Shown here piece by piece: positions 2,033 to 61,932 of a stretch of DNA of 64,000 nt. The position numbers were made by a program, and so were the translations under genes. Position 1 is the first letter of the stretch. The number at the start of each line of letters is the position of its first letter. Below the pieces are notes generated by a model that saw nothing but the letters and a program-made list of their open reading frames with translations, was not told the DNA's origin and did not search any database. This stretch comes from Camelus dromedarius (Eukaryota), in the NCBI RefSeq assembly GCF_036321535.1, contig NC_087436.1, forward strand, positions 11,346,001-11,410,000, given 5' to 3'.

Positions 2033-3478
2033 TCAGTTATCTGCAGGTCCCTGTTGGCTGGGATCACCCCCGTAGTCTCTCACCGCGCAGACTGTGAGAG
2101 AGTCGCTCCTGATGCAGAAGTAGGGCTTCAGGACTTCCGAAAACGCCGCGGAGAAGGAGTGGAGGTGAGACCTGTCGTCCACACTGTAGAAGGACACGGC
2201 GCCCAGCTCGTAGTCCAGGTACACGCCCACCCCGCCGGGCCGGTCCTTCAGCTCCAGGGGGACGGCGCCCCCGGGCCCCTGCGCCTCGTACGCCCCGCCG
2301 CGCAGCCGCACCGTCCAGCGGCCGCCGGGTCCCGCCGGGCGCCCCGCGCGCGTCCCGGGGGCGGGGTCCGCGGGGTCCGCGCAGACGCCCACCGCCCACG
2401 CCGGCCCGCCCAGCCGCACCTCCCAGTACCGCCGGCCGCGCGCGAAGCCCTGGGCGCCCAGCACCGCCGGCTCCGCGCTGAACCTCCGCGCGCCGCGGGG
2501 CGCCCTCCGCTTCCTCCCCAGGAACGTCGCGGACTTCCTGTCCTCGGACACCAGCAGGCTGGGGTGCGCCGTCTCGGGGTCCAGGCTCACGTCCTCCCGG
2601 AACGTCTGGATGATTTTGCGCAGAGCCGAGTGCTGCGGGGGGAGGCTGCAGCCTTCGCGGCGCAGCTGGAAGGAGTAGACGGCGGGGCACCGCAGGCCCT
2701 CGCACCTGCGCAGGACGCCCCCGATGCCTCTCAGCAGCCTCACGCCGGGCAGCACGCTCCGCTCGGCCACCTCCTGCAGGAGGCCCTTCAGGGTGGAAAT
2801 GTGGTCCGAGAAGGCGGCCACGTTGGCGCCCAGCTGCTCCTGGATGTCCCGCTCCTCCTGGACCAGCCTCTCCAGGACGGCCTCCTGCTCGCGGTCCACA
2901 GCCCGGTTCAGCTGCCCGAACTCCAAGGCCAGCTCCCGCCGCTGGCGCTGCACCTGCTCCCGCAGCTCCAGCAGCTTCCTGTCCTGCGCGGCCACCAGGC
3001 TCTGAGCGTCGGCCACCCGCGTCTTCAGGGGCTCCACGTAACTGCCGAGCCTCTTGCGGTGGTGAGCGGCGGCCTCGCCCACGGACCTCACCACGTGGCC
3101 CTGGTGCTCAGGGGGCTGCGTGCACAGGGGACACAGCAGCTCCAGGTCGTCCTCGCAGAAGAGGCCCAGGACCTGGTGGTGCCGCTCGCACAGGCGCGGC
3201 TCCTCGCGCCTCCTCCTCTTGCTCCTGCGGCCGCCCAGCTGTCTGGCGATGTCGATCATCCTGCCCAGCTGGGTGTTGCTCCTGACGTGCCGCTCCTGGC
3301 ACGGGTGGCGGCACACGGGGCAAGGGAACCTGTCCTCCAGGTGAGCCCAGGACTGCTGGATGCAGCGGCGGCAGAAGTTGTGCCCACAGTCGATGGTGAC
3401 GGGGTCGCTCAGGCCGTCCAGACACACGGGACAGTTGGCTTCTGCCTGGAGTCCAGCCAGGGCCGCCGCCACCGCCAT
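2033..3478 (-). CDS. TRIM75: Tripartite motif protein 75 (RING/B-box2/coiled-coil/PRY-SPRY), 481 aa, uninterrupted CDS
   Basis: ATG at 3478 begins MAVAAALAGLQAEANCPVCLDGLSDPVTIDCGHNFC, which matches the TRIM75 N-terminus as I recall it (MAVAAALTGLQAEAKC...RSNTQLGRMI...LCPLCTQPP.HQGH). It has a C3HC4 RING, a B-box, LDPETAHP (PRY) and YLDYELG (SPRY). The ORF-track start at 3673 is a non-ATG extension. Confidence 0.9.
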   Translation of the reverse strand: MAVAAALAGLQAEANCPVCLDGLSDPVTIDCGHNFCRRCIQQSWAHLEDRFPCPVCRHPCQERHVRSNTQLGRMIDIARQLGGRRSKRRRREEPRLCERHHQVLGLFCEDDLELLCPLCTQPPEHQGHVVRSVGEAAAHHRKRLGSYVEPLKTRVADAQSLVAAQDRKLLELREQVQRQRRELALEFGQLNRAVDREQEAVLERLVQEERDIQEQLGANVAAFSDHISTLKGLLQEVAERSVLPGVRLLRGIGGVLRRCEGLRCPAVYSFQLRREGCSLPPQHSALRKIIQTFREDVSLDPETAHPSLLVSEDRKSATFLGRKRRAPRGARRFSAEPAVLGAQGFARGRRYWEVRLGGPAWAVGVCADPADPAPGTRAGRPAGPGGRWTVRLRGGAYEAQGPGGAVPLELKDRPGGVGVYLDYELGAVSFYSVDDRSHLHSFSAAFSEVLKPYFCIRSDSLTVCAVRDYGGDPSQQGPADN

Positions 3479-6275: not shown

Positions 6276-9200
6276 GAGAGTGTTTAGAGGTGCTGCTCAG
6301 AGTTGAGGGGGGGAAGGGGGGGGAGGACCCAGCCTGGGATGAGGCCAAGCTGATGGGCGGCCGCTGTCCCGGTGATAACAGGATCCCAGCTGCAGATTTG
6401 AGATCCTCCCATGATCCTTTCAACGCCACTTAACTTTAATCTTCTCCGATGGGGGAAATGAACTCTGAAAGGCGCTGTGAGTCTGTCCATTTCCTCCCCA
6501 GGGAGGTGTGACTCCCCCGCCCTTCCCGATCTCCAGCTCCGCGTGCACGCGGAGGGGCAGCCGCCCCTCTCACGGTCCGGGGTCTGGGTGAGTCCATCCC
6601 GGGCCCCCTGCACCCTCACGACGAGCAGTTTCCTATTCCAGGACCGCTGAACCCCGACCGCAGACAGGGCAGTGTACAGAGCCCAGGTCCGGACCTGCCT
6701 GACACACAGAAGACAAACTGTGCGAAGTTCCGGCCCCCGAGACAGTTGTGCCGCTGCGGATGGTTCAGGTTCCCGGCGTGATTGTCTCCCAGAGACGAGG
6801 GCGCTGCGGGGAGGGGCCCCTTGGGAGGAGACGCGCACCCAGGAGAAGCCCGGAGTGAGGCAGGAACCGCAGGGCCAGAGGGCAGCAGGGCCGGAGGGCG
6901 GTGGCCTCTGAGCGTCTGCCAACTCTGTTCCTGGCGCGCCCCGCGGCCTCAGCGCAGCAGGGATTAGAATTCCAGGGCCTTGATGAAAATTTGAAAAGAC
7001 GATGTTTGGGGGTAAAACCCTCTAATTTTGATGTATTTTGCTTTGGAACTGCCAAAGCAGTTTGCATTTGTTTCCTGCAACATTTCTGTAAAATAAGCCT
7101 GGTAAGTAACATAGTCAGTGAGGACAGACAGAAAATGGCTGTCTTCCAGGTGGCAAATAACAAAACACCTGCACTAGCTTTGCAGCTTCCTGTGAAAATA
7201 CAATTGTTTCTAAACAAGTTAAAACAAATACACAACCAAAACCCCAAACACCATCTAATTCTTGAGATTATATTATCCCACAGTTATTAATTGTATTAAT
7301 TTGCATAATGTTCTCATGAACCATAGAGGAAAAGTACCAACCGGGAAATGTCTCCCAGGTGGGTCCAGTAGAGAAATAAGCCCTACATTTTCCTCGAAAA
7401 GTATTGGTGTAAGTATTTTTGCTCTGATATGAGAGCTGTTATTCAAAGTACAAAATGAAACCTCTCCCAACTCATAATTTAGAAAGCGCCAGTCCCCCTG
7501 GACTTTGGTGTATGCGGTGCAACACAGGAGTTAAGACCAGAGAAAGATTTGTCAGCTTCCCCTTTGAGGGACAGCAGAGCCATAGCATCCCAGGGGACGG
7601 ACCCCTACAGACACCATGGCCCCTTCACCACTGCCTCCTTCTCCACCAACTAATGATGCCAACCCTCTGAAGACTCAGGGCAGCCGGTAAACAAGTAACC
7701 TTGTGAGATTGTGTGGACAGCGTGGTTTCACGGTTTCCACTGTCATGCCTTTTCTGTCTTCTGAGGTGGGAAGACTGGGAACTCAAGTTTCAGTATCAAG
7801 GGTCAAATTGACCGTGGAAAGGTTGATTTTACACTTTCTGTAGGTTAAAATGTTTTCAAGAGATGGATCCATTTTTCTCCCATTCCTATGAAAGGACCGC
7901 TGGAGGGTCTAGATCTCCATACCTGCTGGAGACACTTTCAGCCCCTGGGAGCAAGTCCAGGTCTGACCCCGCCCCACTTCTCTTCAGTCTGGAGGCTGCC
8001 CACCCCACTTCCAGTCCCCTAGAATGTGCCAACGTGACCTGGTTTCCCTTGACAACTCCTGTCAGGAGGGTCCTTTCCAGGCCTGTCCCCTTTGTAGAGG
8101 GTCAGGGGGAGCTGGCTGCCCCGCGGGGTGCAGTAAGGGAGGTGCAGGAGTCACGTGTTTAGGGCTGTACCTGGATCTGGACTTTGGGAGCGGGTCTATT
8201 TTCAAACTATTCTGATGGGTCAGGAGATCCGGGGTCTGTCAGACACAGACGACTCCTCTCAGTTGACAGCAGAGGGGAATGGCTGCCGGGTCTTGACCTT
8301 CAGTCCTGTGCTTTGCCCACATCTTCTTCATAGACCCAATCATCTCCTGATCGGCTTATCACCTAGTCCCCCACCCAGCCAGCCTCCGGAGCTCTCTCAC
8401 TCACTTCATAGTTAGAGTCCTGGAGCCAGAGACATGAGTGTCATCCCAGCTGGGCCTATGACCGTCCAGGGAGCAGAGACATAGGAAAGCAGGGCATATT
8501 TGCCTCCTTGCCCCGTTTCAGTGTGGATGACCTTCCCATCCGGAGAGAGGATGAGGCTTTGCTTCTCATCAGGAACAGACATTGCCCCCCTCCTGCAGAT
8601 CCTGCACCAAAATGTCTGGTACCATCTGTTGGAAAACGTTTGAACAACCAAACCCACACGATTAGATCAAAAATAACACTGGGCAGTTGAGCCCCTGCGG
8701 CCACAGCAATGCGTGTCCAGGACCACGGGGCGGAGCGTTCCCAGCTCCTGGTCAGCCCGGAGCGGCCTGCGCACACACAGGAGGCGGCTGTTCCCTCTTT
8801 TAAACCACGGCTGAGGACAGGTGTCCTCCAACCCCAGCCCAGCCCCTTCTGTTCACTGAACTCAGGGTCTCAGAAACTGTTCCACATCCACACACATATT
8901 TCACTATGAGCAGAAGCCTGAATGGAAAGTGTTGCATCCATGGTGGGAACAGAAGTTTCTGGAAGAAGGACAGTCTTTGCGAGGTCAGCGTTCCCTCCAG
9001 TGTTCTTCCGCCCTCTCAGTTTCAAATCAGAGGTGTCGCCTACTGAGTGCTTTACCAGGTTAGACTGCGTGCTCTGTGCTTTACTCAAACATCCTGTGAA
9101 AACTTCACGAGAATTCTCTACTGTGGGAGGACTTGCCTCCCATAGACAAAAGTGGAAAGGGAGGGTTAGAGTGGTGACGTCCGCGGGGCCACCGGGATGG

Positions 9201-21944: not shown

Positions 21945-24900
21945 GTTACTGGACCCTTTCCAGATTCTTGGAGAGCAATGCCATAAAAATGAATATCATT
22001 TCCACAAGACTCTTAGACAAGCAAAGGTTTTTATTATAAGTGATCACTTCTGCACAAGGGAGAAGGCAGGGAAAGCGTGTCTACTCTGGTAGGAGAAGGG
22101 GTAAGAGTTGGTTTTATAACAAAATGGGTGGGGGCTGTCTCATGATCAGTGATAGTTTCCAGAAATAATCAAAGCTATTTGCTCAGCAGTAGGTGGCTCC
22201 TGGAGACCATCAGGACCAGGGAGCACTTCTGGGAGGGGAAAGGAATGCGTCAGAACGTTCTCCAAGAAAACACAGCAGACAAGGTTAGAAGTTGCAGTTG
22301 AGCTTCTGGTCTTGTGGCAGTTAGGTACACTCCTGAGTGTCACTGAGATAAGGTTAATCTTTTAATCCTTTTTTTCTTCTTTTGGGACTCATGCCCCAGG
22401 GCTTTTGATTTTTAGCCTGCAAAGTGGGTTTTTCCAAGACCAATCTGGGGTCCTTTTCCAAAACTGCTGTGCTCTGACTTCCTGTCTCTTTCCCCACAGA
22501 CTTTATGTCCCGTCATTTTTGTTTTCATTCTTAAACTGTATTTATGTATTTATTTTACAATATCATATTTTTAAATTGAAGTATAGCTGATGTACGACAT
22601 TATATGTTACAGGTATACAGTGTAGTAATTCACAAGTTTTAAAGGTTATACCCCATTTGTAGTTATTATGAAATATTGGCTGTGTTCCCCATGTTATACA
22701 GCACAGCCTTGAGGCTTATTTTACACCTGATACTCTGTACCCCTCAATCCTCCACCTCCATCTTGCCCCTCCCCCTTCCCTCTCCCCACTGGTAACCACT
22801 AGTTTCTTCTCTACATCTGTGAGTCTGTTTCTTTTCTGTTATATTCACTAGTTTCCTGTATGTTTTTAGATTCCACATGTAAGTGGTATCTTACACTATG
22901 TGTCTCTATGTCCCCTCATTCTTAAGGGATCGTTGGAGGCCGCAGGTGGGTCTTCTGCAGTGGCATCAAGGCTGACTTAGGGCCTGGATGCTACCTGACA
23001 GGAAGCAGACAAGTCTCAAACTACCTGGCTTGGATGAGGCCGGGGCTGGGCCACATAGAATATTTGAAATCTCCTGGGATTCTTTGGTAAAACAGGCCTT
23101 GTCTATATCCTATACAACATTTACACCTAGCTCTACAAACCAGGGCAACTACACAGAAGACAAGAATCCTAAGTTCAGGTCCCACTGACACGGCTCCTCG
23201 AGTCAGAACACAGCCACCCAGAGGGTCCCCTGCCAGCACTGTCGTGCTCTTTAGTGAGGCCAGTTACATGCTTTCCCCCTTGATTTACTGTAAACAAGTG
23301 GTATTTCTTGTGTTATTTCTGAACAGTGGTGGTGTTTCTTGGACTAACAACCTGAAGTGTTTTTCTGGCCATTGAGCCTCCATTAGACTGATTTCCAGAA
23401 GTAGAGACAAACTGGTTTCTAGAAATAGCTTGTCTTTCAGCATCTAGGCTGTTAAAAGTCTTACTCACTTGGAACAAAAAAGGTTTCTCGTGGGCTGAGT
23501 GCTGTAGCAGATTCTTGTCCTTCTGACATTAACAGTTTTATTTTTATAAGTCAGAGAGCACCACGGTTTCACTGAGCCTGCCTTCCTAGCATAACTGTTC
23601 TTTCCCCATCACCAGATAGCGTTTCGTACTGGAGTCTCCACGATGGGCCAGGCTGGAGTGTCCTCTGAGCCCTACTGTGTTTAGGGTACCAAATACTGCT
23701 TTTCAGGGTGGAGCTGAGCACTGACTGGCATCCAGATTTGGGGTTCAGTCTTACCTAACAGAAGCCAGGGGCTCCCCATGGGGAGTATGCATTGTTTTTG
23801 AACTGTATTTCCTGTTTCAACCAACAGTACCACTGGGTATAGCTGCTTTTAACTAATTCAGGGAACTGAATTACTCAGGGCACAAAAATGAAGGTTCCAG
23901 TTACCAGTTATCCCATAGTCTTGGGGGACAGTAAGTCTCCTAGGTGAGTCTCTGGCCTTCCGAGACTGGTAGGGTGGGCCATTGTTTGGGTGTCACTTCT
24001 GATTTTATAGGTACCTTGTGGCCATAAGGTTGCAGTTGGCAGTTGCTAGCAGATACTGTTCTGAGAACAGTTGGTGGTGTCCTTAAATGTGCTGTAGCTG
24101 AGAAATTCAGATTCTCGGTAACACCAGGAATGTGTGTGAGACCTCGTCCACAATGGCCATCCAGCTCTATTTTGAATGTTTTAGCCACAGTTACTCTGCT
24201 TTAATTTTTAAATGTACTTTTTCTTTAAATGGTTAAAGCAGATGTACAATGCATGTTTAATTGGCCACAAACAAACTGTTTTGGATAGTCTAAAGTGACA
24301 AAAGATTTTAAAAGCAATTATAGATCACTTAAAGGCAAAGTAATTGACAAAATCTGTTATCAAAAGCAGTATTCTAATAAAACTTTGTTCTTTTAACAGA
24401 AAGATAAAACCAAACTCCAGTCTTCTATCAGCTTACTTTTAAGAACACATTTCATTTACCTAATTAAATGCAATCGAATCTTAACCAACGTTGACCATGT
24501 ACAGAACTCTTCTCTCAAGGCTCCTTTTCCACACGCTTTCCATCACTTTTATCCACCTTTAGGATAAAACTATTCCCCTCTTTTTCTCCAACAAATGTAT
24601 TTCCACTTTTCACATCTTCTACCATCAACAATGTATTTCCTACTTTTTTACACACTGAAATGCTTCCTTTATTGTTTTAGTAACTTCAATTACACATTAT
24701 AATTTTTGACCCTTAAAAAAAACACCTTAATCTCTAGTGAAAACCAAGAAGCAAGCAAATGCAACCTGTTTGTCCTGCCAGAATTTCCTGATTAGCAAAC
24801 AACATATTCCATAACCTCTAAAAACATACTTTTATTTCATAGCATAATTTCCCTTTTTAATGTGGTACCAGTTGCGTGTCTAATAAACCCAAACATCTTT

Positions 24901-27680
24901 AGATTTTTTTTTTCTCTCACAAGAAGGCAAAAGGGGGCAAACTTAAACTTGCTTAACAGTAAATGTTTCAATATTTTATCTTAATTAAAATGATCTAGAC
25001 CTTTTCTTTTTGATGGCTTAAGTATATTATCTTGATAAAAATGACCCAGGCTTTTTAGGAATTTTGATCAATTAACTTAATTTAGCAAAACTCTCTAAGG
25101 TTTCAAGTTACTAAGAATCTGGAAAAGCTAAAACATTTTTTCTAAACAGTTTATCTAAAAGCTTTTACATTATTTATCTCTATTTTATTACTTAAGACAG
25201 TATTGTCATACTGAGTTAATTTTCTTGCTGGCATTTTTCAACATACATAAAGTGAGTTTATTGACTTTCAGTAAACCTGGGTACAATAAAAGTAATATAC
25301 TTAATAATGATGACTTTAAAGATGTCTGTATTAATTAACAAACCTTAATTCTAATACTAGATAGTAATTTAAATACTGAATATTCACCAGATCATGTGAA
25401 CCTGAAATTTATTTTGGTTAATTTTTTTTTTTTTTTGTATTTAGAAATGTTTGATTTGTAAGCCCTTCCTTACCTTTTTTTAAAAAAATCCAATTGAAAA
25501 GAGCTCCTTTGCAAAACAAATTTCCCTTTTTGTAACAATAAACAACATGCAAATGGAAAGATAAGAAATCATGACCACCCATGTTATGGCAATTTACCTG
25601 CAAGGTGTAAGACCAAAATTAACAGTTGGAATAAGTTAAATTTACTTACTTGAGTTTAAAAAGCCTCTTTCCTGCTTCTTTTCCTTTGGTTTGAAGTTTT
25701 ACTAAATAACCCATTGCTTTACTCTCAGGCAACGTGGGCTGTGCTTATTTTTTAAGGACATGATGAGATCTGTAACTTCAGGGTTTCTCCTAGGAATATT
25801 TTTGTTCCCTCAGGGTCAAAATTATGGGGAAAAAAAGAAGTGTTTTATCAAGCCAAACTTTTTAACCTGTATATACAAAAAGAATCAGTTTTGGGTTTTT
25901 TTTTTTTTTTTTTGCATGCCGAGTTTAAAGAATATTACGGCTACTTAAGGTTAAGGAAAAAAGTATCTTCTTCCTAAACGTAATTAAAGCTCTCCCAGTT
26001 TTTGCAAAATACACCCTATGGAACAAGAGCAGGATGGAACAGGGCTCTCATTTCCCATTGTTCTTTCAAGAGGCTGGTGTGACCAGAAACAGACAGGTCA
26101 GGACTAAAGCCCTGTTTCTTTCACCCCAGAACTGAAAGCTCTGTGGGCAGCAATGCCTGGTCAGAGGCAGCAGTCAGCACTGTCCCTGAGACAGAAGTGC
26201 TCAGGTAGCTGCTGGACAGAATCCCAGAGCCACTGGCCAGGGGCCAATGCTCCACAGGCAACAGGCCCAATTAACATGGAGCCCAGGACAAAAGTGGTCC
26301 CCAGTTACTCCCATAGACCTGCTCTAACAAACCCCAGGCCACTGGCCACTGCAGAGAGCACTGCTGCCTCAGACCTTGACCTTCCCATCAATTTTTAACA
26401 ATATACACTGTAGACCAGGTCCAATCCCTGCTTCATTATATGTAACAGTCTATACCACTCACTAAGCAGACAAGGAGAGAAATCACAGGAGTACATGGCT
26501 CAGAAATGTTCCCAGGTGGGGAATAACTGATTTTCCCAGAAATAGCAGTGAGCTGAGAGCAGTCTGTAGCCTCTACGGCTCCACTGACTTACATAGTCAC
26601 AAAGGTCCTTTCCCCACAAATACTGACTTTGCTTAGAAAAATAGCATTGGGGCTTACAACGTGAAGTCAAACAAGGACAGTCATCCAGGTGCACCACAGT
26701 CAAAGAGACATGCAGAGGGGAAGCAATTCCAATGGTGCCTGAACCAGCCCCTGGGGATCAGTCTTGGATTTTCAGATTCAGGCCAACCTTCCCAGTCAGC
26801 AGAATAGACAACTGAAGAGAACAGACCAGACACAACAGAGCAGATGAAGGACTCCCGCCTCCTTGCTAAGAAAAAAAAAAGGGGGGGAAAGGAAAAGAAG
26901 GGGAGTAAGAGAAAGAGAAGAAAGGGGAGAAGCCATGCCTGCCTGTGACAGATGGACCAAAGCCAAAGCCCCGGCAGTGTAGCAGCCGCCCCAAGGACAC
27001 TGAAACAAAAGCGCTTCAGGCAGCTCTGCCCTCTGCCCCAGAAGGAATCTCCTCCTCTGGGATCCCGGGAGCCTGGGGGCCCAAAGAGGTCCTGGCTCAG
27101 CCTCCCTCCTAGAAGGGCTCCCCATCTTACGTCACTAGGCCCTTTCCAGATTCTTGGACAGCAATACCAGAGAAATGACTATCATTTCCACAGGACTCTT
27201 AGGCGAGCAGAGCTTTGTATTAAAAGAGATCCCTTGTGCACAAGGGAAAAGGTGGAAAAACGTTACACCTCCTCGAGCAGAAGGGGCAAGTTTTGCTTTT
27301 ATAACAAAAAGGGAGGGGTTTGTTTCATGATCACAGACATTTCCATAATGTGTCAAACTTCTTTGATCAGCACCAGAAGGCTCCCCAGTGACTATCAGGA
27401 ATGGGGAGTGTTTCTGTGAGGGGGGAAAGGAGGCATGAGAATTTTCTGCAGGAAAACACAGGGACAAAAGGAACAGGAAATTGATAGTTGAACTTCTTGT
27501 CTTGTGGCAATTATGTGCACTTGTTAGTGTCACAGAGATAAAGTTATTCTTTAAGCCTGTTTCTTTTTTGTTTCTTTGCTTCTAGGACTCAGGCCCCCAG
27601 GGCCTTTGTTCTTGAGCCTAAAGGCATGCTTTGCTCAAATTGCTATCCAAAATGACTGTGCTCTTCTCTTCCTGTCTCAG
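21945..27680 (-). mobile_element. Old non-autonomous ERV provirus with two LTRs (about 21945-22495 and 27130-27680) and an AT-rich internal region
   Basis: Two ~550 bp direct repeats, both beginning ..CCCTTTCCAGATTCTTGGA.AGCAAT..TATCATTTCCACA.GACTCTTAG and ending CTTCCTGTCTC, roughly 70% identical by eye. The internal region is AT-rich with no long ORF, like MER4-group internals. Confidence 0.7.
22545..22910 (-). mobile_element. LINE-1 3' end inserted in the ERV internal region
   Basis: ATTGAAGTATAGCTGATGTAC...CCCACTGGTAACCACTAGTTT...TAGATTCCACATGTAAGTG, an antisense L1 3'UTR. Confidence 0.75.
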
Positions 27681-29642
27681 AAAGAAAGTATTGTTGTCAA
27701 GTATTTGAAATGGCAGCCAACTCAGGTCAGTTACTTGTAATGGTAGGTCTGGCTTTGGGATTGCTGTAATCCCAGCATTTCCCTAAGAGACAGAGACAGA
27801 AAGGATCTGGACCCTTGGATTAGAGGGAGAGTGTGGCTCACAGAAGGGAGAGGAGCTGGCCTGTTGCCTGGGGCAGGAGCCCACTGGGAACAGTGGCTGG
27901 TGACCCTTGTGAAACTGTATCCACACAGAACATGTTCAGCCTGTAAAATAACAGATACAGAGTAGAGCAATGTATTCCTTTCCAAGGGCTGCCATGCAGA
28001 ACACCGCACATAGCTGGGGTGACTTCAACAATAGACACTGATTCTGTCACAATTCTGGAGGCTGGAAGCTGCCGATCAAAGGGCCAGGAGGTTCACTTAC
28101 CCCTGAGCCCTGGCTCGGGGACTCCCAGGGGGCTGCTTCCTGCCTGGGACCTCCTTTCCTCCGTGGGTGCCTGTCCCAGACGTCTCTTCCAAGGTGACCA
28201 GTCAGTGTTGAACTAGGGCCTCTCCCCAGCAGCCTCATTTTAACTTAATCAACATTTTACAGCCCTTCTCACCACAAAGAGTCCCATTCCGATGTGCTGA
28301 GATTTACAGATTCAATATAGGAACTGTGCATGGGGGGAGGGGAGGACACACGGTTCAGCCAACATGTCCCATGTTCACATCCAGTGAGTCTCCCCCACCC
28401 TTCCCTGCTCCTCCTCACTGTGAAGCCGGTCCTGGTATCACAGGGTTTTATATGTAAACAGTGTACTGTGTAGCTTTCCTGTTGAGTCTCTTTTCATTAA
28501 CAAAATCACATTAATTAACCATTACCAGGCATCTGCTGTCCTAACTGACTACAGTTGCTTTTTGTTTGGAAATGTATGTATTTGAATCCAGGAAAAAAAA
28601 AAAAAACTGGTAAAACACTGTCGATTATGTACATGGTGTTTATCTCCTTAATGTGTGTTCTTTCCCCCGTGTTAGCATTTTCTGGAAGGAGCTGCTGAGC
28701 TGTGCGGAGACTGGCCCACGTCTGGATGTGCTGACTGGCCCACGCTGGGGATCCTCACGGCCACCTGGAGCTGGGCTGTCCCTGAAGGAGAGGACGACCT
28801 CTCAGGCCTCGATTTCCGGCCACCGAGTGAAAGGGACCAAGGTGCCCAAGGCAGCGGAGGCTCCTGGGGCTCCGGGCCCTGCGGCTGCGGCTGTGGAGGT
28901 GAAGGAAGGGGCAGGACTCGGCCCCACTGCACACAGCTCCCTGGGTCCTGGGAGACCCACGGGCGGGCGTGAAGGCCAGAGAGAAGGTGGCGGGTCGGAA
29001 GCTTGTCCCTGTCCCAGCCCCTGGAGAGCCGGGCTTCTCTGAGGGCGTCTCCCCTGACAGGACCCCTCCCGGCACGATGGCCCTGGCGGCCTCCCTGGCG
29101 CAGCTGCACGCGGAGGCCAGCTGCCCCATCTGCCTGGACTGCCTGACGGACCCGGTGACCACGGGCTGTGGGCACAACTTCTGTCACGCCTGCCTCCAGC
29201 AGCGCTGGGAGGGGCTCCGGGACCTCTTCCCCTGCCCGCTCTGCCTGCAGCCCTGCCCTGAGCGCAGCTGCAGGAGGAACAGCCAGTTAAGCCACCTGGC
29301 TGACGCTGTGAGGCAGCTTCCCAGCACGAGGGCCAAGAGGGGCCGGCAGGGGGAGGCCCCCCTGTGTGAGAAGCACAGTCAGGCCCTGAGCCTGTTCTGT
29401 GAGGAGGACCTGGAGCTGCTGTGTCCCCAGTGCAGGCTCTCCTCTGAGCACCGCCACCACCCCCTAGTGCCCGTGGAGCAAGCTGCAGTGTGTCACAGGA
29501 GGAGGCTCAAGGGCTACCTGGAGCCCCTGACAAAGCAGCTGGAAGCTGCTGAAAAGGGCTTAGAAATGCAAGTCTCCAAGTCATTTGAGTTGGTGTCCAA
29601 CATGGAGAATCAAAGGAGCAAACTGCACTCTGAAGTTGAACA
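26998..29642 (+). repeat. Inverted duplication arm A (near-identical to 61367-64000)
   Basis: The reverse complement of 61367-64000 aligns along the whole stretch, with about 25 substitution or indel events by eye. I see only 2 between about 28660 and 29640. Confidence 0.95.
27970..28365 (-). mobile_element. MLT1 (ERVL-MaLR) LTR; mirrored copy at about 62635-63022
   Basis: Antisense MLT1 hallmarks: AGGGCTGCCAT..., CACAATTCTGGAGGCTGGAAG, CCTCATTTTAACTTAAT, GGACAC..TTCAGCC. Confidence 0.7.
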
Positions 29643-30462
29643 CTTTAAGCGTTTCTTGGGAACAGAGCATGACGAAATTCATGTTAAGCTGCTAAATGAA
29701 GAAAAGAGTGTTGTAGATAAAATAACTGGGAAAAAAATCCAAATATCAGACCACGGATCCACGTTGAAAAGTCTGCTTTATGAAATAACCAACAAGTGTT
29801 CCCAGACTGACCTGGATTTACTCACAGGCATTGAAAGAATCCACAGAAGCTATGAAAATTTAGAGAGCCCAGCAGCCTTTTGGTCTGAAGTGAAGAAGGA
29901 GGTTTTCACTCTCCCCCCACAGTATTTTGGCTTGCACAAAATGATCAGCACCTTTCAGGTCCATTTGACACTGGAGCCTGAAACTGCTCACCACAGCCTC
30001 CAAATTTCACAAGATCGGAAAACTGCAACTTTTCGATGGATGGAACCAAACTGTGTTCATCCTCCCCAAGTGTTTACTTCTTACCCCGCTGTCCTGAGTT
30101 CAGAGGGTTTTGATGCTGGCAGGCATTTTTGGCAGGTAGAAGGCAGAGGCAGTGGGGAATGGTCCTTAGGGGTGTGTAAAGAATCTTTCCCTAGAAATTC
30201 TCTTGTGTCACCTTCCCCAAGCAATGGCTGCTGGCAAATTCAGCTCTGGGGAACCACCCGTGACACACGGGTTTCAGGAAATGCCTGTCGGATTGGCATT
30301 TTTCTGGACTATGATTTGGGAGAAGTTTCTTTTTACAATTTGAATGATAGGTCTCCTTTGTATATATTCAGTGACATTTTTACAGAAAAACTTATGCCCT
30401 ATTTCTCTATTAGACCTTCTTCTAAATCACTTACAATAAGTATAGTTGAAGATGAGTGCTGA
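29077..30462 (+). CDS. TRIM60/TRIM75-like paralog A, 461 aa (RING/B-box2/CC/PRY-SPRY), uninterrupted CDS
   Basis: ATG in a strong context (ACGATGG) begins MALAASLAQLHAEASCPICLDCLTDPVTTGCGHNFC. It has a B-box (CEKH..C....CPQC....H..H), LEPETAH and IGIFLDYDLGEVSFYN. AATAAA lies at 30524-30529. Confidence 0.9.
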   Translation: MALAASLAQLHAEASCPICLDCLTDPVTTGCGHNFCHACLQQRWEGLRDLFPCPLCLQPCPERSCRRNSQLSHLADAVRQLPSTRAKRGRQGEAPLCEKHSQALSLFCEEDLELLCPQCRLSSEHRHHPLVPVEQAAVCHRRRLKGYLEPLTKQLEAAEKGLEMQVSKSFELVSNMENQRSKLHSEVEHFKRFLGTEHDEIHVKLLNEEKSVVDKITGKKIQISDHGSTLKSLLYEITNKCSQTDLDLLTGIERIHRSYENLESPAAFWSEVKKEVFTLPPQYFGLHKMISTFQVHLTLEPETAHHSLQISQDRKTATFRWMEPNCVHPPQVFTSYPAVLSSEGFDAGRHFWQVEGRGSGEWSLGVCKESFPRNSLVSPSPSNGCWQIQLWGTTRDTRVSGNACRIGIFLDYDLGEVSFYNLNDRSPLYIFSDIFTEKLMPYFSIRPSSKSLTISIVEDEC

Positions 30463-32529
30463 GCCACTTTGGAAGACTTTCTGTATGATCCACGTTCTTG
30501 CTATGTTCTTGGCAAGTCCTTGCAATAAAGAGTCTGAGTCCATCTTTGATGTCTGACTGCTGATGTCTTTTCACCCTCACCCTCGGGCCTCCCCTGTGCC
30601 CCACATCTGGGCAAGCTGTCAGGACAGCCTGGAGGCTCCTTCACTGGGCTAAGCAAGGCGGTTCTCACCCAGGACGGTCCTGGCTACAGAGGAGCTTTCC
30701 CCAGCAACAACCCCCTCAGACTAGTGGCTTTTCTCTTTTCTCTGAAGACACTTCTGGACCAGTGGCCGCCCTGATTTCACACAAGGCCTCAGTGAGTGGT
30801 AATAAACGGTATGTTGTGGCAGTCTTGACACAGGTAAATTTTGAGTGGCTGGGGTTTTGCCTCAGTGGGTTGACCAGAGCACTCCTTAGAATATCGTTTG
30901 ATTCCAGTTTTTCAGATATTCGGATCCCAGGGGGATGCTACATTCATCTTTGTTTTTCAAGTATCAGAAGACAGGTAGTTTTAGCCTTTGTTTTTTAAAA
31001 CTATATTTGTGATTCCCATTTCTCCACAGAAAGGTGTGGGTGGGATTCTGTTACAAATTCCTTGAAATTTTTAGTTACAAAAATAATGTTTCACAACCGG
31101 TTCTTCTGAAAATTTCTACCACAAGACATCTAATTTGTCTTACATTGCAGTGAATGTCAGTGAATGTTGAAAAATAATACATGTAGATCGACATGGACAA
31201 CTATGAAAAAGCTCTCTGAAATGCATGGTTTTAGCTATTGTAAGTAAATGGCAGGTGCAGATGGGTTCATTAAAATGTCCTTCCTAACAAAGTTAAGGAC
31301 CTTCACAACAGAGTAAAGGATGACTCTCTGATAGGAACAACTGAAGGAAATTTGTGATCTACACATGGGTTTTGAGGCCATGGCACTAGTTTATACAGAC
31401 AAATTTGGATTTGAAGTCAGGTCCTGCAAAATCTCCAGTAACAGGACCTAAATCTTTTGCCAAATAATATCTCTGTACGATTAAATAACGTGATTGCCAC
31501 AGACACAAACATATTAAAAATAAAGCATAAATTGACTATTAATTTATCACCTATCAGGTTTATCTGTGAAATTTATTATTACTTTACACCCACACTTTCA
31601 AGGGAAATCTGAAATTTAGGTTTGCTTGTTGTAATTTTGTCATATTTCCTGTTTTTAACCCAATGATCATTTTTTGCAAGTATCAGCAAATAAGTTTCCT
31701 TTCCTTTTTTTTTTTCTTGTAGCTCTAGATAATAGGTATATCTATTAATAGGTAAATGTGGTATATACAGTGTGGTATACTTTTAAAAATACTGATTAAT
31801 ATTCATTATTTTTAAAAGTTACCTGATTATAGTACAAATATAAAAATTACAGTATATAAGGTCATAATGGTCTCCCACTATGCTGGATCTCCCAGTCACA
31901 TATTTTTACTTTTCACAGATAAACATTTCCTAGATCTTCATGTATACCACACATATTTTAAACACATATGTACTAACACAAACACATCCACACATTCAAA
32001 TGGTGGTATATTACACACCATTATGATTGTTTTTCATTTTTATTTTGTTTACACCTTTACATTATTTTGGAAATTGATATTTCAATACATATAAATGGTC
32101 ATTCTACTTAAAGCATCATCAGTCCAATTTGGATGCACTATAATTCACTTAAGCAATCCTCCAATGATGAACTTCACTTGTGACAGTATTTTCTCAAAAT
32201 CAGTAGGACAACAAATAACCTTGGGTATCTATCTTTCACATGTATGGGACACCACTTTATGAAAAATTCCTTAAAACCTCAGAATCCTTAACACAGCATT
32301 CTAGGCCTCGCCGCTACAAATCAATCAGCACTGTCCTGAGATGAAGCCTGTTTGTCATTATTGGCATAGCAAGTAATCCATATAATTTAATGTCCATTTC
32401 CTTCTCAAAAACAAACAAACAAACAAAAGATTTCAGGAGATACCTGTCGGATTGGTGTTTTGGATTGCTGAGTCAACGGTACACGCTGCATTTCCAATGC
32501 TCATACTGGCAGATTGCCCCGTGAGTAGG

Positions 32530-32680
32530 ATATTGGCAAACTACTGCCTGCAGACTGAATCCAGCCCAGTACGTGCTTTGGTAAAAAGGGCTGAATTGGA
32601 ACACGGCAGGCCATTATTTGCTGTATTATCTATGGCTGCTTTCATGCTACAGTGGCAGCACTGAGTAACTGCCAAGAGAT
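32530..32680 (+). mobile_element. MER58-like DNA transposon fossil; inverted paralogous copy at about 59340-59490
   Basis: GGCAAACTAC...AATCCAGCCC...TTGGAACAC...TCTATGGCTGCTTTCATGCTACAGTGGCAG resembles MER58A. Confidence 0.6.
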
Positions 32681-33239
32681 CATATATACTATATAAAAAA
32701 TTCTTAAAGAATATTAAGTTACTCTCTCCCTCAAAAGTCTCTAAGGACCATTTCATAGACTACAACAATGCCTATCATGGCCTTGTGACCCTACCAAAAA
32801 AAAAAAAAAAAAAGGTTGGCTCTCCCTCTAACTCACCTCTCTGATCTCACTGTTAACTTTTTCCACTTCACTGACTTCCTCTATGTGTTGGCCTCCTTGC
32901 TGTCCCGGGCTTGCCAATCCCATCCCCATAACATTTGCTCTAGCCATTCATTCTGCAGTGCTCCACCAATGCTATTCCCTCATCCAGTTTGCATTCTTTA
33001 TTCTCTAAGACGCCTACCCTGACCGCCAGTCTTCACGGCTGACCCTTTCCCACACACAGTACTCTCGTGCTGTTGACACTGATCAGCTTCTCCCTGTTCC
33101 TACAGCACTTTCTCAGCCTGAAAGAACTGTAGCAATCATTTATTATTTGATTGTCTTTTTTCTCCATTCTAGAAGTACACTGCTCCAGGACAGGAATCTT
33201 TTGTTTTGCTCAGCTAGTACAATTCTGGATTGAAGGTAT

Positions 33240-34417: not shown

Positions 34418-35833
34418 TCAACTTTCATCAGCTGTTACTGAAGATATTTTAAGAGGTTCCGAATCGATCCCAGTATAGAAGTAGGGGCAAATGGCTTCTG
34501 TAAATGAATCACTAAAACTATAGAGAAGAGATCTGTCACTCAGATTGTAAAAGGAAACCTCACCCAAGTCATAGTCCAGAAAAATGCCAATCTTACTGGG
34601 TCCTACCATGGGCAGGAGACGGTTTCTCTTAGGACCCGACACAACATAAATACTCTCAGCATACCGCCCAACTGCCCAGAATCCACCCTCAACCACTGGC
34701 TGACTCCGCCAGTTCCTAGGAAACCAGTCTTGACACACCCCCAATGTCCATTTAGGCTTGTTTCCCACTTCTACCTCCCAGTAATGCCTACCAGAATGGA
34801 ATCTGTTACAACCCAGGACAGCAGGGCAGAGATAAAATCTCCTTGGGTTATAACAAAGGCTTTGTTTTCTCTTCTCATATCGCACAATTTTTCTATCCTC
34901 AGAGACAATAAGCTGCGGATGTGCTGTTTCAAGGTCTAGAATCACATCTACTTGAAATGGCTTGATAATTCTGTCAAAGCCAGAATACTGTGGAGGAAGG
35001 TTAAACCCATATTTCTTTAGTTGGAATGAAAAGCGTTCAGGAGGGGTTAGGTTTTGATACCTGTGGTGGATACTCTTAACCTGCCTCAGTACTTCCAGGT
35101 CTGACTGCACACACTTACCCTCTACCTCCCTCAGCAGATGTTTCAATGAGGAAACATGATCTGTAAATGTTACAAAGTTTTCATTTAGTTTTGCTAAAAT
35201 CTCCATCTCTTCATCTTCCATCTGCCGAAGAATATCCTCTTGCTGATTTTGTAGAAACAGTCTAAGTTGCTCAAATTCAGAATGTATTTCTTCTCTCCTA
35301 TATTTCACCTGCTTTCTCAGTTCAACTGATTTGCTGGCTTGCAGAGTTAGCACTTTTTCAACTTGTTCCATATTATCCTTCAAGGGCTTAATGGTACATT
35401 CCAGGATTTTCCTGTGATGAGAGGCAGCTTTCTTAATGGGGCAAATGCAGTGTTTCTGGTGCTGAATGGAGAAACTGCACTGTGTACATAAAACCTCTAG
35501 GTCCTTCCCACAAAAAAGGGTCAGAAGCTGGTTGTGCGTCTCACACATGGAACTCTCTTCCTGCCTCTTCCTCTTGCTCCTTCTGATCTGCAGCAGCTTA
35601 GCAATTTCAGTCAAATGGCTGAGCTGGGAGTTGCTCCTGATATTCCTGTCTTGAAAGCAAACACGGCAGACAGGACAGTGGGCGGGAGCACCCAGGCCCT
35701 TCCAAGTCCTGCTGATGCATGAGCGACAGAAGTTGTGCCCACAGTTGATCGTTACCGGGTCTTTCAAGTAGTCCAGGCAGATGGGGCAGCTAGACTCCTC
35801 CTGGAGCTGTACCAGCGCTGTCACAAACTCCAT
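34418..35833 (-). CDS. TRIM60: Tripartite motif protein 60, 471 aa, uninterrupted CDS
   Basis: MEFVTALVQLQEESSCPICLDYLKDPVTINCGHNFCRSC, IRRSKRKRQ, WEVEVGNKPKW and PSKIGIFLDY match TRIM60 as I recall it, including the length. Candidate AATAAA signals at 34281-34286 and 34171-34176; candidate acceptor TTTTTTCTTCCTTAG| at about 36119. Confidence 0.95.
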   Translation of the reverse strand: MEFVTALVQLQEESSCPICLDYLKDPVTINCGHNFCRSCISRTWKGLGAPAHCPVCRVCFQDRNIRSNSQLSHLTEIAKLLQIRRSKRKRQEESSMCETHNQLLTLFCGKDLEVLCTQCSFSIQHQKHCICPIKKAASHHRKILECTIKPLKDNMEQVEKVLTLQASKSVELRKQVKYRREEIHSEFEQLRLFLQNQQEDILRQMEDEEMEILAKLNENFVTFTDHVSSLKHLLREVEGKCVQSDLEVLRQVKSIHHRYQNLTPPERFSFQLKKYGFNLPPQYSGFDRIIKPFQVDVILDLETAHPQLIVSEDRKIVRYEKRKQSLCYNPRRFYLCPAVLGCNRFHSGRHYWEVEVGNKPKWTLGVCQDWFPRNWRSQPVVEGGFWAVGRYAESIYVVSGPKRNRLLPMVGPSKIGIFLDYDLGEVSFYNLSDRSLLYSFSDSFTEAICPYFYTGIDSEPLKISSVTADES

Positions 35834-57792: not shown

Positions 57793-59837
57793 GGTGGATT
57801 CAGCAGAGTAATTAAAGGGAGGAGAAATACTCTGTGACTGCAAAAGGTGGCAATGACCAGGTTGTACTGGCTTGGAGACCACGTGACAAGTTGACATGAT
57901 TTCTGAGTGAGATGAAGTTTTGAGAAGACGAATGACAATGTTTGGTTTATGTTTAAGGGATCACCCTAACTGTTGGTCTGCACAGGGACTACAGTGAGGA
58001 ACAGGGCAGGAGGCAGAGGAAGCAGGGAAACTCCCTAGGAGGCTATTGCAATATTCTGAGCATTTCATGATTGTAACTTGAACTAGCCAGGTCATTGCAG
58101 ATGGAGAGGTAATAAGAGATCCAATCTTGGTTTATTGCAAGAATTATCGTATAATGATCTGATCACTAATGTGCTCATCCAATCTGTAAAGAACTATTCT
58201 AGGGATCTGGGAAGCTTACAAACTAGAAACTAGTCTAATTTTCACGCTGTCCAGAAACTCCTGGAAAACTCTGCTAAGCCAGCTTCCCCATTCTAGGCTG
58301 AGATGGACTAAAATAACCTACTTCTGGAGGCAGCCTCAGGTCTCAGGGACTCAGCCTGGTTTGATCCATGTCTGGTAGCTCTCAGATTTCTCTCAGTGTC
58401 TTGGTTCTCCTGAACATAACCCCACCCCTTCAACCTTAATTCAGAATCAGTCTCTGTCTCCTTGGCTACTGGAAAACGGGACATTGGAGAAGAGCATGCT
58501 CTGATTTAATTTTTAAAAGAACACTTGGTTATTAAGGATAAAAACAGTGTGAAAGCACAGAAAGCATTTAGGAGACTTTTATAGGAATCTAGACAAGACA
58601 GGATGATGGCAGAGTCTAGAATGTTAGAGTAGAGATTGCAAGCTGAAAGATTCAGCAAGTGTCTGAAGAACTTTTTAGTGGAAAGGATAATTGAAGAGTA
58701 AGAGAAAAAAAGAAATGAAGCATAAAACCTACCATTTTTGGCTTCAGCAAATGGATAAGTGTGGCCATTGTTGGTAAACATGTTGACAGATTGGAGGAAC
58801 CCAGGCTTATGGGGGAGATATCAAAAGCTGTGATTTTCCCACAGACGGTACAACGGCACATCTATCTGCATCCATCTGTGCGCCGTGTATGGCTATCCAC
58901 ACACACTCCCCTCGACAAATGTTAATGTGGAGGAATAGAGAAAGGATTACAGGGGTATAAACCAAGTTTTAATCCTATTACCCACTCCTAAGGAAAGTAA
59001 GATTAGAACTGAGTAAAGAAGGAAGCTTTACAATTTTTACCTATATTTGTATGAGAAGGTTCTAATGGTTTTATAATTCAAACATTAAATAATAACAGCT
59101 GCAGTTGTGATAGTATCACTGAAAATTCTAATCTGAAATAAAAATCAGCACAATACCGTAGTCTGCCTAGTTCCCTGATAAATCTTAAGTTTGATAAGGC
59201 ACTGGGCTTCTAAAGATATGAAGAAACAAAGTACTTTCTTATATTTCTGGTGAAAGTGTATGTTGATAAAACTATAGTTGAGGTGGGAAAATTGTCACTA
59301 AAAGTATCAGGGAGTATTTAAGATTTTGTGAGCCATAGGATCTCTACAACAACTGCTCTACGTGGCCACTGTAGCATGAAAGGAAGTCCTGGACAATACA
59401 GCACCAAATGACAAGGCTGTGTTCCAGTTCAGCCCTTGTACCGAAGCCTGCCCTGGGCTGGATTCAGTCTGCAGGCAGTAGGTTGCCAATATCCTACTCA
59501 AGAGGCAATCTGCCAACATATATCAACATTGTAAGTGTGGCATGTACCTTTGACTCAGCAGTTGATTTTGTTATACAAATTTTGAGGAGAAAATGTTGGG
59601 ACAATTTAGAAGGCCATCATGAAAGGATTGCCTAAATGAACTACAGCACGTCCAATTGGAGTGATGACACTTTAAGTAGAATGAGTATTTACAAGCGTTG
59701 ATATGTTGTCATGTTTAAGACAATGTGAAGGCATTAACAAAACTAAGCATAAAACATAGTCAGAATGGTGTATATAACACACCATCATTTGACTGTGTGT
59801 GTTTGTGGCTACATTTGTGTTTAAAATATGTATGGTA

Positions 59838-59870
59838 ATACATACATACATACATACATACACACATACA
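59838..59870. repeat. (TACA)n microsatellite
   Basis: ATACATACATACATACATACATACACACATACA. Confidence 0.8.
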
Positions 59871-60287
59871 AATAAATTTAAAAAGCAAAAACACCAAATA
59901 AAATATGTATGGTATACATGACCAGCCAGGAAGTGTTTATCTCTGAAAAAAAAAAAATGTGGCTGAAGGATCAGATTAGTGGGATTCAATTATAACTTTA
60001 CATCCTTTTGTAATTTTTATACTTGTACTATAATCCAGTGACTTCTAAAAATAGTTAATTTTTAAAATATAAATCCTATATATTACAGTATTTCAAAATA
60101 TTAACTATCTTTAAAGTATGTACCTACACATGCCACATGAATATAGCTATGTCCTTTGCATGCAGGACCTTCCTGAGTTGGAACCACCCTCCTCAGCCCA
60201 GTGAAGGAGCCCCCAGGCTGTCCTGACGGCTTGCCCAGATGTGGGGCAGAGGGGAGGCCCGAGGTTGAGGGTGAAAAGACATCAGCA

Positions 60288-60546: not shown

Positions 60547-61932
60547 TCAACACTCATTTTCAACTATACTTATTGTAAGTGATTTAGGAGAAGGTCTAAT
60601 AGAGAAATAGGCCATAAGTTTCCCTGTAAAAATTTCACTGAATGTATATAAATGTGATCTATCATTCAAATTGTAAAAGGAAACTTCTCCCAAATCGCAG
60701 TCCAGAAAAACGCCATACCGCCAGGGGTTTCCTAAAACCCGCGTGTCCTGTATCACAGCCCAGAGCTGAATTTGCCAGCAGCCGTTGCTTGGGGAAGGTG
60801 AGACAGGAGAATTTCTGGGGAAAGATTCTTTACACACCCCTAAGGACCACTCCCTCATGCCTCTGCCTTCTACCTGCCAAAAATGCCTGCCAGCATCAAA
60901 CCCCTCCGAACTCAGGACAGCGGGGTAAGAAGCAAATGCCTGGGGAGGATGAACACAGTTTGGTTCCATCCTTTGAAAGGTTGCAGTTTTCTGATCTTGT
61001 GAAATTTGGAGGCTCTGGTGAGCAGTTTCAGGCTCCAGTGTCAAATGCACATGAAAGTTGCTAATCATTTTGTGCAAGCCAAAATACTGTGGGGGGAGAG
61101 TGAAAACCTCCTTTTTGACTTCATATGAAATGGGTGCTGGGCTCTCTAGGTTTTCATAGCTTCTGTGGATACTTTTAATGCCTGTGAGTAAATCCAGGTC
61201 AGACTGGGAACACTTGTTGGTTATTTCATAAAGCAGACTTTTCAACGTGGATCCATGGTCTGATATTTGGGTTTCTTTGTCAATTATTTCATACTGAACA
61301 CCTTTCTCTTCAGCCTGTAACACGAAGTCAATTACATTGTGCTCTGTTTTCAAGAAATTCTTAAAATGTTCAACTTCAGAGTGCAGTTTGCTCCTTTGAT
61401 TCTCCATGTTGGACACCAACTCAAATGACTTGGAGACTTGCATTTCTAAGCCCTTTTCAGCAGCTTCCAGCTGCTTTGTCAGGGGCTCCAGGTAGCCCTT
61501 GAGCCTCCTCCTGTGACACACTGCAGCTTGCTCCACGGGCACCAGGGGGTGGTGGCGGTGCTCAGAGGAGAGCCTGCACTGGGGACACAGCAGCTCCAGG
61601 TCCTCCTCACAGAACAGGCTCAGGGCCTGACTGTGCTTCTCACACAGGGGGGCCTCCCCCTGCCGGCCCCTCTTGGCCCTCGTGCTGGGAAGCTGCCTCA
61701 CAGCGTCAGCCAGGTGGCTTAACTGGCTGTTCCTCCTGCAGCTGCGCTCAGGGCAGGGCTGCAGGCAGAGCGGGCAGGGGAAGAGGTCCCGGAGCCCCTC
61801 CCAGCGCTGCTGGAGGCAGGCGTGACAGAAGTTGTGCCCACAGCCCGTGGTCACCGGGTCCGTCAGGCAGTCCAGGCAGATGGGGCAGCTGGCCTCCGCG
61901 TGCAGCTGCGCCAGGGAGGCCGCCAGGGCCAT
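60547..61932 (-). CDS. TRIM60/TRIM75-like paralog B, 461 aa (497 aa if the upstream in-frame ATG at 62040 is used)
   Basis: Protein identical to paralog A over the first 191 aa, then diverged; frame intact. AATAAA on the minus strand at 60480-60485. Confidence 0.9.
   Translation of the reverse strand: MALAASLAQLHAEASCPICLDCLTDPVTTGCGHNFCHACLQQRWEGLRDLFPCPLCLQPCPERSCRRNSQLSHLADAVRQLPSTRAKRGRQGEAPLCEKHSQALSLFCEEDLELLCPQCRLSSEHRHHPLVPVEQAAVCHRRRLKGYLEPLTKQLEAAEKGLEMQVSKSFELVSNMENQRSKLHSEVEHFKNFLKTEHNVIDFVLQAEEKGVQYEIIDKETQISDHGSTLKSLLYEITNKCSQSDLDLLTGIKSIHRSYENLESPAPISYEVKKEVFTLPPQYFGLHKMISNFHVHLTLEPETAHQSLQISQDQKTATFQRMEPNCVHPPQAFASYPAVLSSEGFDAGRHFWQVEGRGMREWSLGVCKESFPRNSPVSPSPSNGCWQIQLWAVIQDTRVLGNPWRYGVFLDCDLGEVSFYNLNDRSHLYTFSEIFTGKLMAYFSIRPSPKSLTISIVENEC

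Follow-up and report, generated by a model that had tools for sequence, protein, structure and literature searches.

Recurrent gene conversion very likely shapes a bounded mosaic of identity between two inverted TRIM60/61-like paralogs of the dromedary

Introduction

Mosaic concerted evolution has been described for the mammalian gene pairs BMP8A/B (which are inverted), DDX19A/B and TUBG1/2 (PMC2720389). Here we analyse genes A and B, two inverted TRIM60/61-like paralogs in a 64,000-nucleotide stretch of the dromedary (Camelus dromedarius) genome (contig NC_087436.1, positions 11,346,001 to 11,410,000; hereafter the window). Like the three pairs above, A and B are old neighbouring paralogs that group by species in one part and by paralog in the other, with raised GC content at third codon positions (GC3) in the concerted part and signs of repeated conversion (PMC2720389). 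Unlike them, the camel genes are intronless, the break falls within a single exon, and its position varies between living animals; moreover, there are three camel copies—one of them broken—and the duplication is dated only as older than the camel–alpaca split, not as older than 100 million years (My) (PMC2720389).

A second parallel is exon 5 of the primate red/green opsins, where a divergence peak under conversion has been interpreted with the Teshima–Innan model (PMC3924837). Both systems have a narrow, highly diverged coding island amid homogenised sequence, in which orthologs are closer than paralogs. For the opsins the selected residues are known; the island of A and B has a ratio of nonsynonymous to synonymous divergence (dN/dS) below 1 and is known from sequence alone.

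Within the TRIM family, the young genes of primate chromosome 11 include a tail-to-tail pair, the TRIM49-like A1/A2, lying in inverted segmental duplications (PMC3228819). As inverted tail-to-tail TRIM paralogs for which conversion has been proposed, there with a GARD breakpoint, they resemble the camel pair; unlike it, they belong to a different TRIM clade, their conversion is either whole-gene or limited ('not extensive'), and the available part of that report describes no persistent coiled-coil island for them. The TRIM60/TRIM61/TRIM75 cluster of mammals, expanded in bats, matches the camel locus in family, cluster and copy-number variation, and the main text describing it contains neither 'conversion' nor 'recombination' (PMC10145180). 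Bat TRIM60 and TRIM75 show little expression and no interferon induction, so that an antiviral arms race should not be assumed by default here (PMC10145180). In the available part of PMC5737536, TRIM60/75 are treated only as an orthology artefact. We found no publication on the camelid TRIM locus, in a search outside of which most subscription papers lay. Conversion between paralogs is a well-known process and no new mechanism; it is the locus that appears to be undescribed.

Results

Genes A and B are two of four long single-exon open reading frames (ORFs) in the window, each encoding RING, B-box, PRY and SPRY domains (Table 1). Pfam matches above cut-off place the domains of A and B in TRIM order (RING 16–56, B-box 94–133, PRY 297–345, SPRY 349–454), and the coiled coil is recognised by a sequence match to that of TRIM5 and, in A, by a helix at 133–241 in a low-confidence model. 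Gene B has an in-frame upstream ATG at 62040 that would extend it to 497 amino acids (aa). The nearest database relatives of both are camel and alpaca proteins labelled TRIM60-like, TRIM75-like or TRIM61.

An initial annotation, made from the sequence alone, had described stepwise strata of identity across this pair, and its measurements largely held. In a global alignment, 26998–29642 and 64000–61367, there put at ~99% identity, differ by 19 substitutions and six indels in ~2.6 kb (~99.3%). The diverged block opens at 29643 (codon 189, a synonymous difference) and the first amino-acid change falls at codon 192, in line with the sharp break placed near codons 189–192; thereafter 52 of 273 residues differ, close to the estimate of 50 in 270. 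The 3′ flank described as diverged to ~30690/60160 can be aligned as far as 30693/60152, B carrying an insertion of 164 bp, and the ~1 kb said to lack a counterpart in B was delimited as well (Table 1). For the far flank (31781–32656 against 60067–59365), where roughly 70–80% identity had been read by eye, we counted 117 mismatches in 607 ungapped columns (81% identity), with BLAST pieces at 73–81%. What did not survive is the stepwise order: the profile is not monotonic, and identity is lowest in a 96-bp peak at the edge of the tract, not at the far end.

Codons 1–188 of A and B differ by a single synonymous change (1 in 132 synonymous sites) and no amino acid, and the ~3 kb of noncoding DNA upstream, including a dispersed repeat, is ~99% alike, as are the synonymous sites. 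Nonsynonymous divergence reaches 0.10 in codons 189–461, and synonymous divergence, far from being uniform along the gene, is 0.008 in codons 1–188 versus 0.27 in codons 189–461. Change-point segmentation of the A/B block gave a best twofold log-likelihood difference (2dLL) of 114, compared with a maximum of 17.7 in 200 permutations, and the 5′ end of the tract became visible only with DNA beyond the window. The divergence of the tract departs from that of each flank at a Fisher p of ~1e-60. Older colinear homology adjoins the ~99% stretch on either side, which makes it a tract with two closed ends. The far flank has B as its best genome match and is therefore part of the duplicated unit rather than two independent repeat copies; ~32520–32690 is a dispersed repeat with many genomic matches, which may be the MER58-like (hAT-Charlie) fossil named in the initial annotation. 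Because a third copy, C (see below), retains 30762–31141 (64 mismatches in 368 columns), the absence of 30694–31780 from B reflects at least partly a loss from B.

At 2.2e-9 substitutions per site per year, a rate derived from the scaling in PMC7305198, these divergences would correspond, roughly, to a mean age of ~1.8 My for the tract and ~0.4 My for its coding part, to 25–27 My for the near flanks and to ~51 My for the far flank. The A/B duplication itself predates the camel–alpaca split and would be tens of millions of years old.

If the 5′ part is homogenised within species, trees should switch along the gene, as the initial annotation had predicted (5′ by species, 3′ by paralog), and camelid proteins, on which the cross-species comparison was made, do so. 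In a quartet of camel A/B and alpaca A/B, residues 1–175 hold five sites grouping by species and none by paralog, and residues 189–461 none by species and 34 by paralog; in residues 1–175 orthologs are more different than paralogs. Trees were built from 22 of 27 aligned proteins (leaving out narwhal, fin whale, two tamarin rows and a truncated wild-camel copy). The best tree for residues 1–175 unites camel A and B with support of 84/75 (unstarred). This clade is rejected by the approximately unbiased test (p-AU) for residues 176–226 (0.00036) and 296–461 (7.9e-49), for which A and B ortholog clades are supported at 98/98 to 100/99. Residue 153 is E in A, B and the third copy of Bactrian and wild camels and K in dromedary and alpaca; the window has K153, as do dromedary-labelled records. 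The E153 common to the Bactrian and wild-camel copies suggests conversion after the Old World camel split, dated to 4.4–7.3 My (PMC7305198).

The B of the window equals A up to codon 188, whereas at codons 179, 180, 182, 184 and 185 the B proteins of other dromedary and Bactrian records do not match A. In public short-read runs the near-identical 5′ part collapses into one contig. This common contig branches at 61398 (codon 179) in run X1 and at 61367 (codon 189) in run X14, arguing that the boundary differs between animals and that the form in the window is not peculiar to its assembly. X1 has a B-type contig with eight other letters over 61225–61427, and the position of its branch point suggests that it is the older allele. 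In X14 one contig is the same as B over 61276–61396, of which 30 letters lie on the 5′ side, one below the 31-letter bridging rule, and three parallel contigs run around 61084–61233. Run X2, a possible source of the window DNA, was not counted as evidence.

A 154-kb self-comparison showed 1795–31141 to be duplicated in inverted orientation at window-frame 60–102 kb. The A/B pair is thus part of an inverted duplication of ~100 kb, which is a mosaic along its whole length: change-point segmentation found all five arm blocks tested, the A/B block and four others, significantly mosaic. A search of the same genome located copy C beyond the window (G000:C1:11425954–11427288, minus strand; locus L003/L010), in which codon 437 is a stop and the frame shifts at codon 444; B and C are direct repeats of each other. 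At the 132 A/B-differing sites where C matches one of the two, it is B-type at 74 and A-type at 58, alternating in 27 runs versus 66 expected (p ≤ 5e-5; clustering was judged by this runs test, not by GENECONV itself). Upstream, the unit of copy C has the homolog of ~20755 joined directly to that of ~28407 and so lacks 7.6 kb that the left arm has. Frameshifted forms of 339 aa occur among Bactrian, wild-camel and alpaca records (P0125, P0126, P0027); in those from camels the coiled coil is A-type and the PRY B-type. Copy C of the window's genome differs from this, so that the third copy varies between species or haplotypes.

Gene A reaches a GC3 of 154/188 in the converted codons versus 110/273 outside. 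The gene in the spacer between A and B, used as a control, has 113/188 in the matching part and 114/283 in the rest; A is higher than this control (p = 4.5e-6), and because the spacer gene has a gradient too, that of A is partly a family trait. Ranked by G, A, R and P residues minus F, Y, M, I, N and K residues (GARP minus FYMINK) in positions 1–175, the four camelid proteins fall in the top 8 of 91, together with four mole paralogs; GARP/FYMINK is 49/17 in camel A versus 28–47/27–44 in 17 non-camelid proteins. GC-biased conversion in the tract is likely.

A bounded tract, a tree switch, a mosaic third copy and two boundary positions among camels are thus established. We consider it very likely that recurrent non-allelic gene conversion between the A and B arms explains this mosaic. 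A and B would derive from an old duplication and stand as inverted repeats 30 kb apart in a ~100-kb imperfect palindrome, whose arms would pair homologously, patches being repeatedly copied from arm to arm. The upstream region and the RING, B-box and proximal coiled-coil part would be converted often, on separate occasions in each of the three lineages (alpaca, Bactrian, dromedary), and the 5′ part would therefore evolve in concert. Tracts would end in the central coiled coil, on reaching or approaching an island of strong heterology (codons 179/189–221), and the linker and PRY-SPRY, converted only occasionally, would remain paralog-specific. We infer non-crossover conversion as the molecular route, and likewise the GC bias and the reason for the island's persistence.

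Read this way, an old duplication with a recently re-homogenised 5′ portion, as first proposed, is borne out by flanks diverged by 10–19% versus 0.8% in the tract, synonymous and noncoding sites included, and the two halves do not both group by paralog, since residues 1–175 group by species. Conversion stands as well; a single localized event does not, since conversion is recurrent. The tract also has a 5′ end, at 26005/26006. The 3′ portion, thought to have escaped, is indeed paralog-specific, without having escaped fully: C is an A/B mosaic, and camel B alleles carry single A-type residues at codons 306/309.

Recurrent crossovers between the inverted repeats, either flipping the spacer back and forth (inversion toggling) or exchanging A, B and C unequally, might instead have made the chimeras, with homogenisation as a by-product. 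Inverted identity of 99.2% over 3.6 kb offers them a suitable substrate, the coiled coil of the third copy is A-type in Bactrian and wild-camel records but B-type here, and the deeper coiled-coil type is not the same in X1 as in X14 (depth not being a copy number). However, a single crossover swaps flanks and cannot make two loci identical over a bounded tract, and the many short alternating patches in C and in the arms suit conversion better; although the routes are not exclusive, we regard crossovers as an improbable explanation of the mosaic.

Still less probable is that assembly collapse or polishing made the 5′ parts look alike. The near-identical part does form one contig in short-read runs, but the tract still holds 29 substitutions plus indels and collapse presupposes near-identity; the independent runs X1 and X14 have a common 5′ contig branching into parallel 3′ contigs, and alpaca and Bactrian records repeat the pattern with residues of their own. 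We give as little credence to a recent 3.6-kb duplication inserted beside the 3′ half of an older paralog: viewed in the window only, it would give the same young-5′, old-3′ picture, but colinear homology, at 89% identity, continues on the 5′ side of the tract, arguing that the segment replaced its homolog in register, and such insertions would have to have happened repeatedly for alpaca and camels to be homogenised separately. Least credible of all, and already refuted by the alignments, is strong purifying selection on RING and B-box with adaptive 3′ divergence, since—although these domains are more conserved in the family (between-order distance 0.23–0.42 versus 0.53 for 176–222)—synonymous sites and 3 kb of noncoding DNA are equally alike, orthologs differ more than paralogs in residues 1–175, and the 3′ part has a dN/dS under 1 (0.10/0.27).

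Several points weigh against recurrent conversion as we read it. The cross-species evidence consists of proteins, and the assemblies behind the database proteins could have collapsed 5′ parts; the 5′ species clade rests on five sites with unstarred support, and the Bactrian E153 case on one site. Segment 227–295 favours neither grouping clearly: p-AU is 0.068 for the species clade and, for the A clade, 0.048. A test for direction in GC, which used an amino-acid proxy, was not significant (9 versus 3, p = 0.15; outside the tract 9 versus 4), and the correlation between GC and divergence along the arms is weak (rho = −0.26, p = 0.012, 97 windows). Double crossovers or inversion toggling may also be part of the route.

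The divergence peak at the tract edge (34 of 96 bases) exceeds both the rest of the 3′ part (99/955; p = 1e-9, an optimistic value given that segmentation set the peak window) and the noncoding far flank (p = 7e-4, the window again being post hoc). Its dS is ~1.1 on 21 sites and its dN 0.29; positive selection in the peak or in SPRY was rejected, with dN below dS in every segment. The peak lies inside the long coiled-coil helix and overlaps the region equivalent to the centre of TRIM5alpha, whose residues 186–201 mediate the dimer and linker/SPRY packing (PMC5667893). All seven positions mapped to these residues—through the TRIM5 coiled-coil alignment, with rhesus numbering fixed from residues named in PMC5667893—are conserved between A and B. 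Residues 176–226 hold 20 fixed A/B differences, which include 7 of 10 equivalents of TRIM75 dimer contacts versus 13 of 41 other positions (post hoc p = 0.036; contacts from a fragment structure, PMC9471973, whose register may differ from that of the full protein).

An AlphaFold2 model of A has a mean predicted local distance difference test (pLDDT) of 39.5 and is unusable beyond the long helix. For a coiled-coil A:B heterodimer (132–292), prediction gave a score of 0.56 (weak support) against 0.00 for the best of three controls, with runs agreeing in at least 80% of contacts and a partner pLDDT of at least 76; only 5 of 78 solved complexes, and all four passing mismatches, score at or below 0.60. 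As solved TRIM dimers exist, this prediction indicates likeness only and does not separate a preference for homodimers from one for heterodimers.

A peak at this site as a mammal-wide rule was rejected. In 23 species with paralog sets, drawn from the best 120 of 1459 matches plus cluster members after 90% clustering, which hides close paralogs, the segment with the greatest divergence relative to baseline was 136–175 in nine, 189–222 in four, 176–188 in one and elsewhere in nine. A duplication older than the camel–pig split, first suggested by shared residues, was likewise not adopted: monophyly of the camelids is not rejected by trees for 176–226 and 189–222 (p-AU 0.26 and 0.35), and a clade of camel B with suids has support of 52/21. 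Suid pairs of the same cluster show a different mosaic, with residues 1–83 identical or nearly so and 84–226 diverged (pig P0137/P0140, warthog P0008/P0012) and, in the pig pair, 111 of 116 SPRY residues (346–461) alike.

Table 1 Features of the locus, in window coordinates (window-frame positions above 64000 lie beyond the window)
Feature	Position	Strand	Remarks
Left arm of inverted duplication	1795-31141	+	Mosaic; 0.3-14% diverged, peak excepted, from partners at window-frame 60.1-101.7 kb
TRIM75-like ORF (presumed name)	2033-3478	-	Same arm of the inverted duplication as A
5′ unconverted flank	24292-26005	+	11.0% diverged from partner at window-frame 66615-64992 (beyond window)
Conversion tract (very likely), A side	26006-29642	+	29 mismatches/3613 columns (0.8%); ~3 kb upstream plus codons 1-188
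Gene A	29077-30462	+	Intronless RING/B-box/coiled-coil/PRY-SPRY TRIM60/61-like ORF, 461 aa
Divergence peak in A	29643-29738	+	Codons 189-221, central coiled coil; 35.4% of bases differ (34/96)
Coiled-coil rest, linker, PRY-SPRY, 3′ flank	29739-30693	+	10.4% diverged from B 61270-60152
Stretch without counterpart in B	30694-31780	+	30762-31141 retained in copy C (83%)
Far 3′ flank of duplicated unit	31781-32656	+	19% diverged from B; dispersed repeat at its end
TRIM60-like ORF (presumed name)	34418-35833	-	Spacer between A and B; unconverted control for GC3
Far 3′ flank, B counterpart	59365-60067	-	Partner of 31781-32656
164-bp segment	60293-60456		In B, absent from A; resembles dispersed repeat
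Gene B	60547-61932	-	Inverted paralog of A; 461 aa counted from the homologous ATG
Divergence peak in B	61271-61366	-	Counterpart of the A peak
Conversion tract (very likely), B side	61367-64000	-	Runs on past the window to window-frame 64991

The other two long ORFs are one that we take to be TRIM75-like (2033–3478), whose coiled coil has mouse TRIM75 (7UG2) as its top structural-sequence match, and one, presumably TRIM60-like, in the spacer (34418–35833). The former has a second copy at window-frame 99974–101419 (plus strand), 98 kb away, from which it differs at 1 of 1446 bases; its GC3 is 0.84–1.0 over most of its length, and its protein is strongly GARP-shifted (GARP/FYMINK 168/48 versus 101/91 in a hyena homolog). 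These copies are a stronger candidate than A and B for GC-biased arm-to-arm conversion. In the mole paralogs P0065, P0069, P0074 and P0088, residues 1–175 are as GARP-rich as the camelid ones, or more so, and parallel GC-biased conversion there is possible. Just upstream of the window, an intact TRIM60-like ORF (G000:C1:11342261–11343667, plus strand; locus L016) is 77% identical to the spacer ORF and inverted relative to it, a pair that appears to be an older layer of inverted duplication. A decayed PRY-SPRY-like remnant with four stops lies at 7426–7824 (minus strand). RNA run X15 yielded only a 35-base piece of another paralog; since a filter removes records, this has no bearing on expression either way.

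Discussion

Why the island in the coiled coil persists under conversion admits two explanations. It is conceivable, though doubtful, that selection shields a ~100–140-bp island in the central coiled coil from conversion, perhaps for at least 50 My, with RING and B-box kept identical. Alternatively, the island may be a self-maintaining heterology barrier; according to the review that treats the opsins, accumulated differences or indels alone can end conversion (PMC3924837). Between orders, 176–222 is the fastest segment (distance 0.53–0.54), so the peak may simply show the true age of the pair. Also against a special role, the peak is not general in the 23 species, and the trees do not establish an age before the camel–pig split. 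On the selection reading, the similar arrangement in suid pairs, with identical RING, diverged coiled coil and near-identical SPRY, might mark a recurrent rule of the cluster.

Were selection to shield the island, A and B would be two E3 ligases with interchangeable catalytic heads and paralog-specific surfaces at the dimer centre, bearing on partner choice or SPRY positioning, and conversion alleles entering the island (boundary 189 versus 179) would segregate in camels, offering a natural test. Because the boundary varies among living camels and lies beside a sharp coiled-coil island, selection against conversion can be weighed in populations against a heterology barrier that is neutral. The near-identical repeats of 3.6 kb, inverted to each other (26006–29642; 61367–64000 plus 991), further predict a possible polymorphic inversion of the 30-kb spacer with its TRIM60-like gene. 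In practice, mosaic histories in this cluster will mislead trees of whole genes, dN/dS scans and orthology names (TRIM60-like, TRIM75-like, TRIM61), and the 5′ part is collapsed when genotypes are called from short reads.

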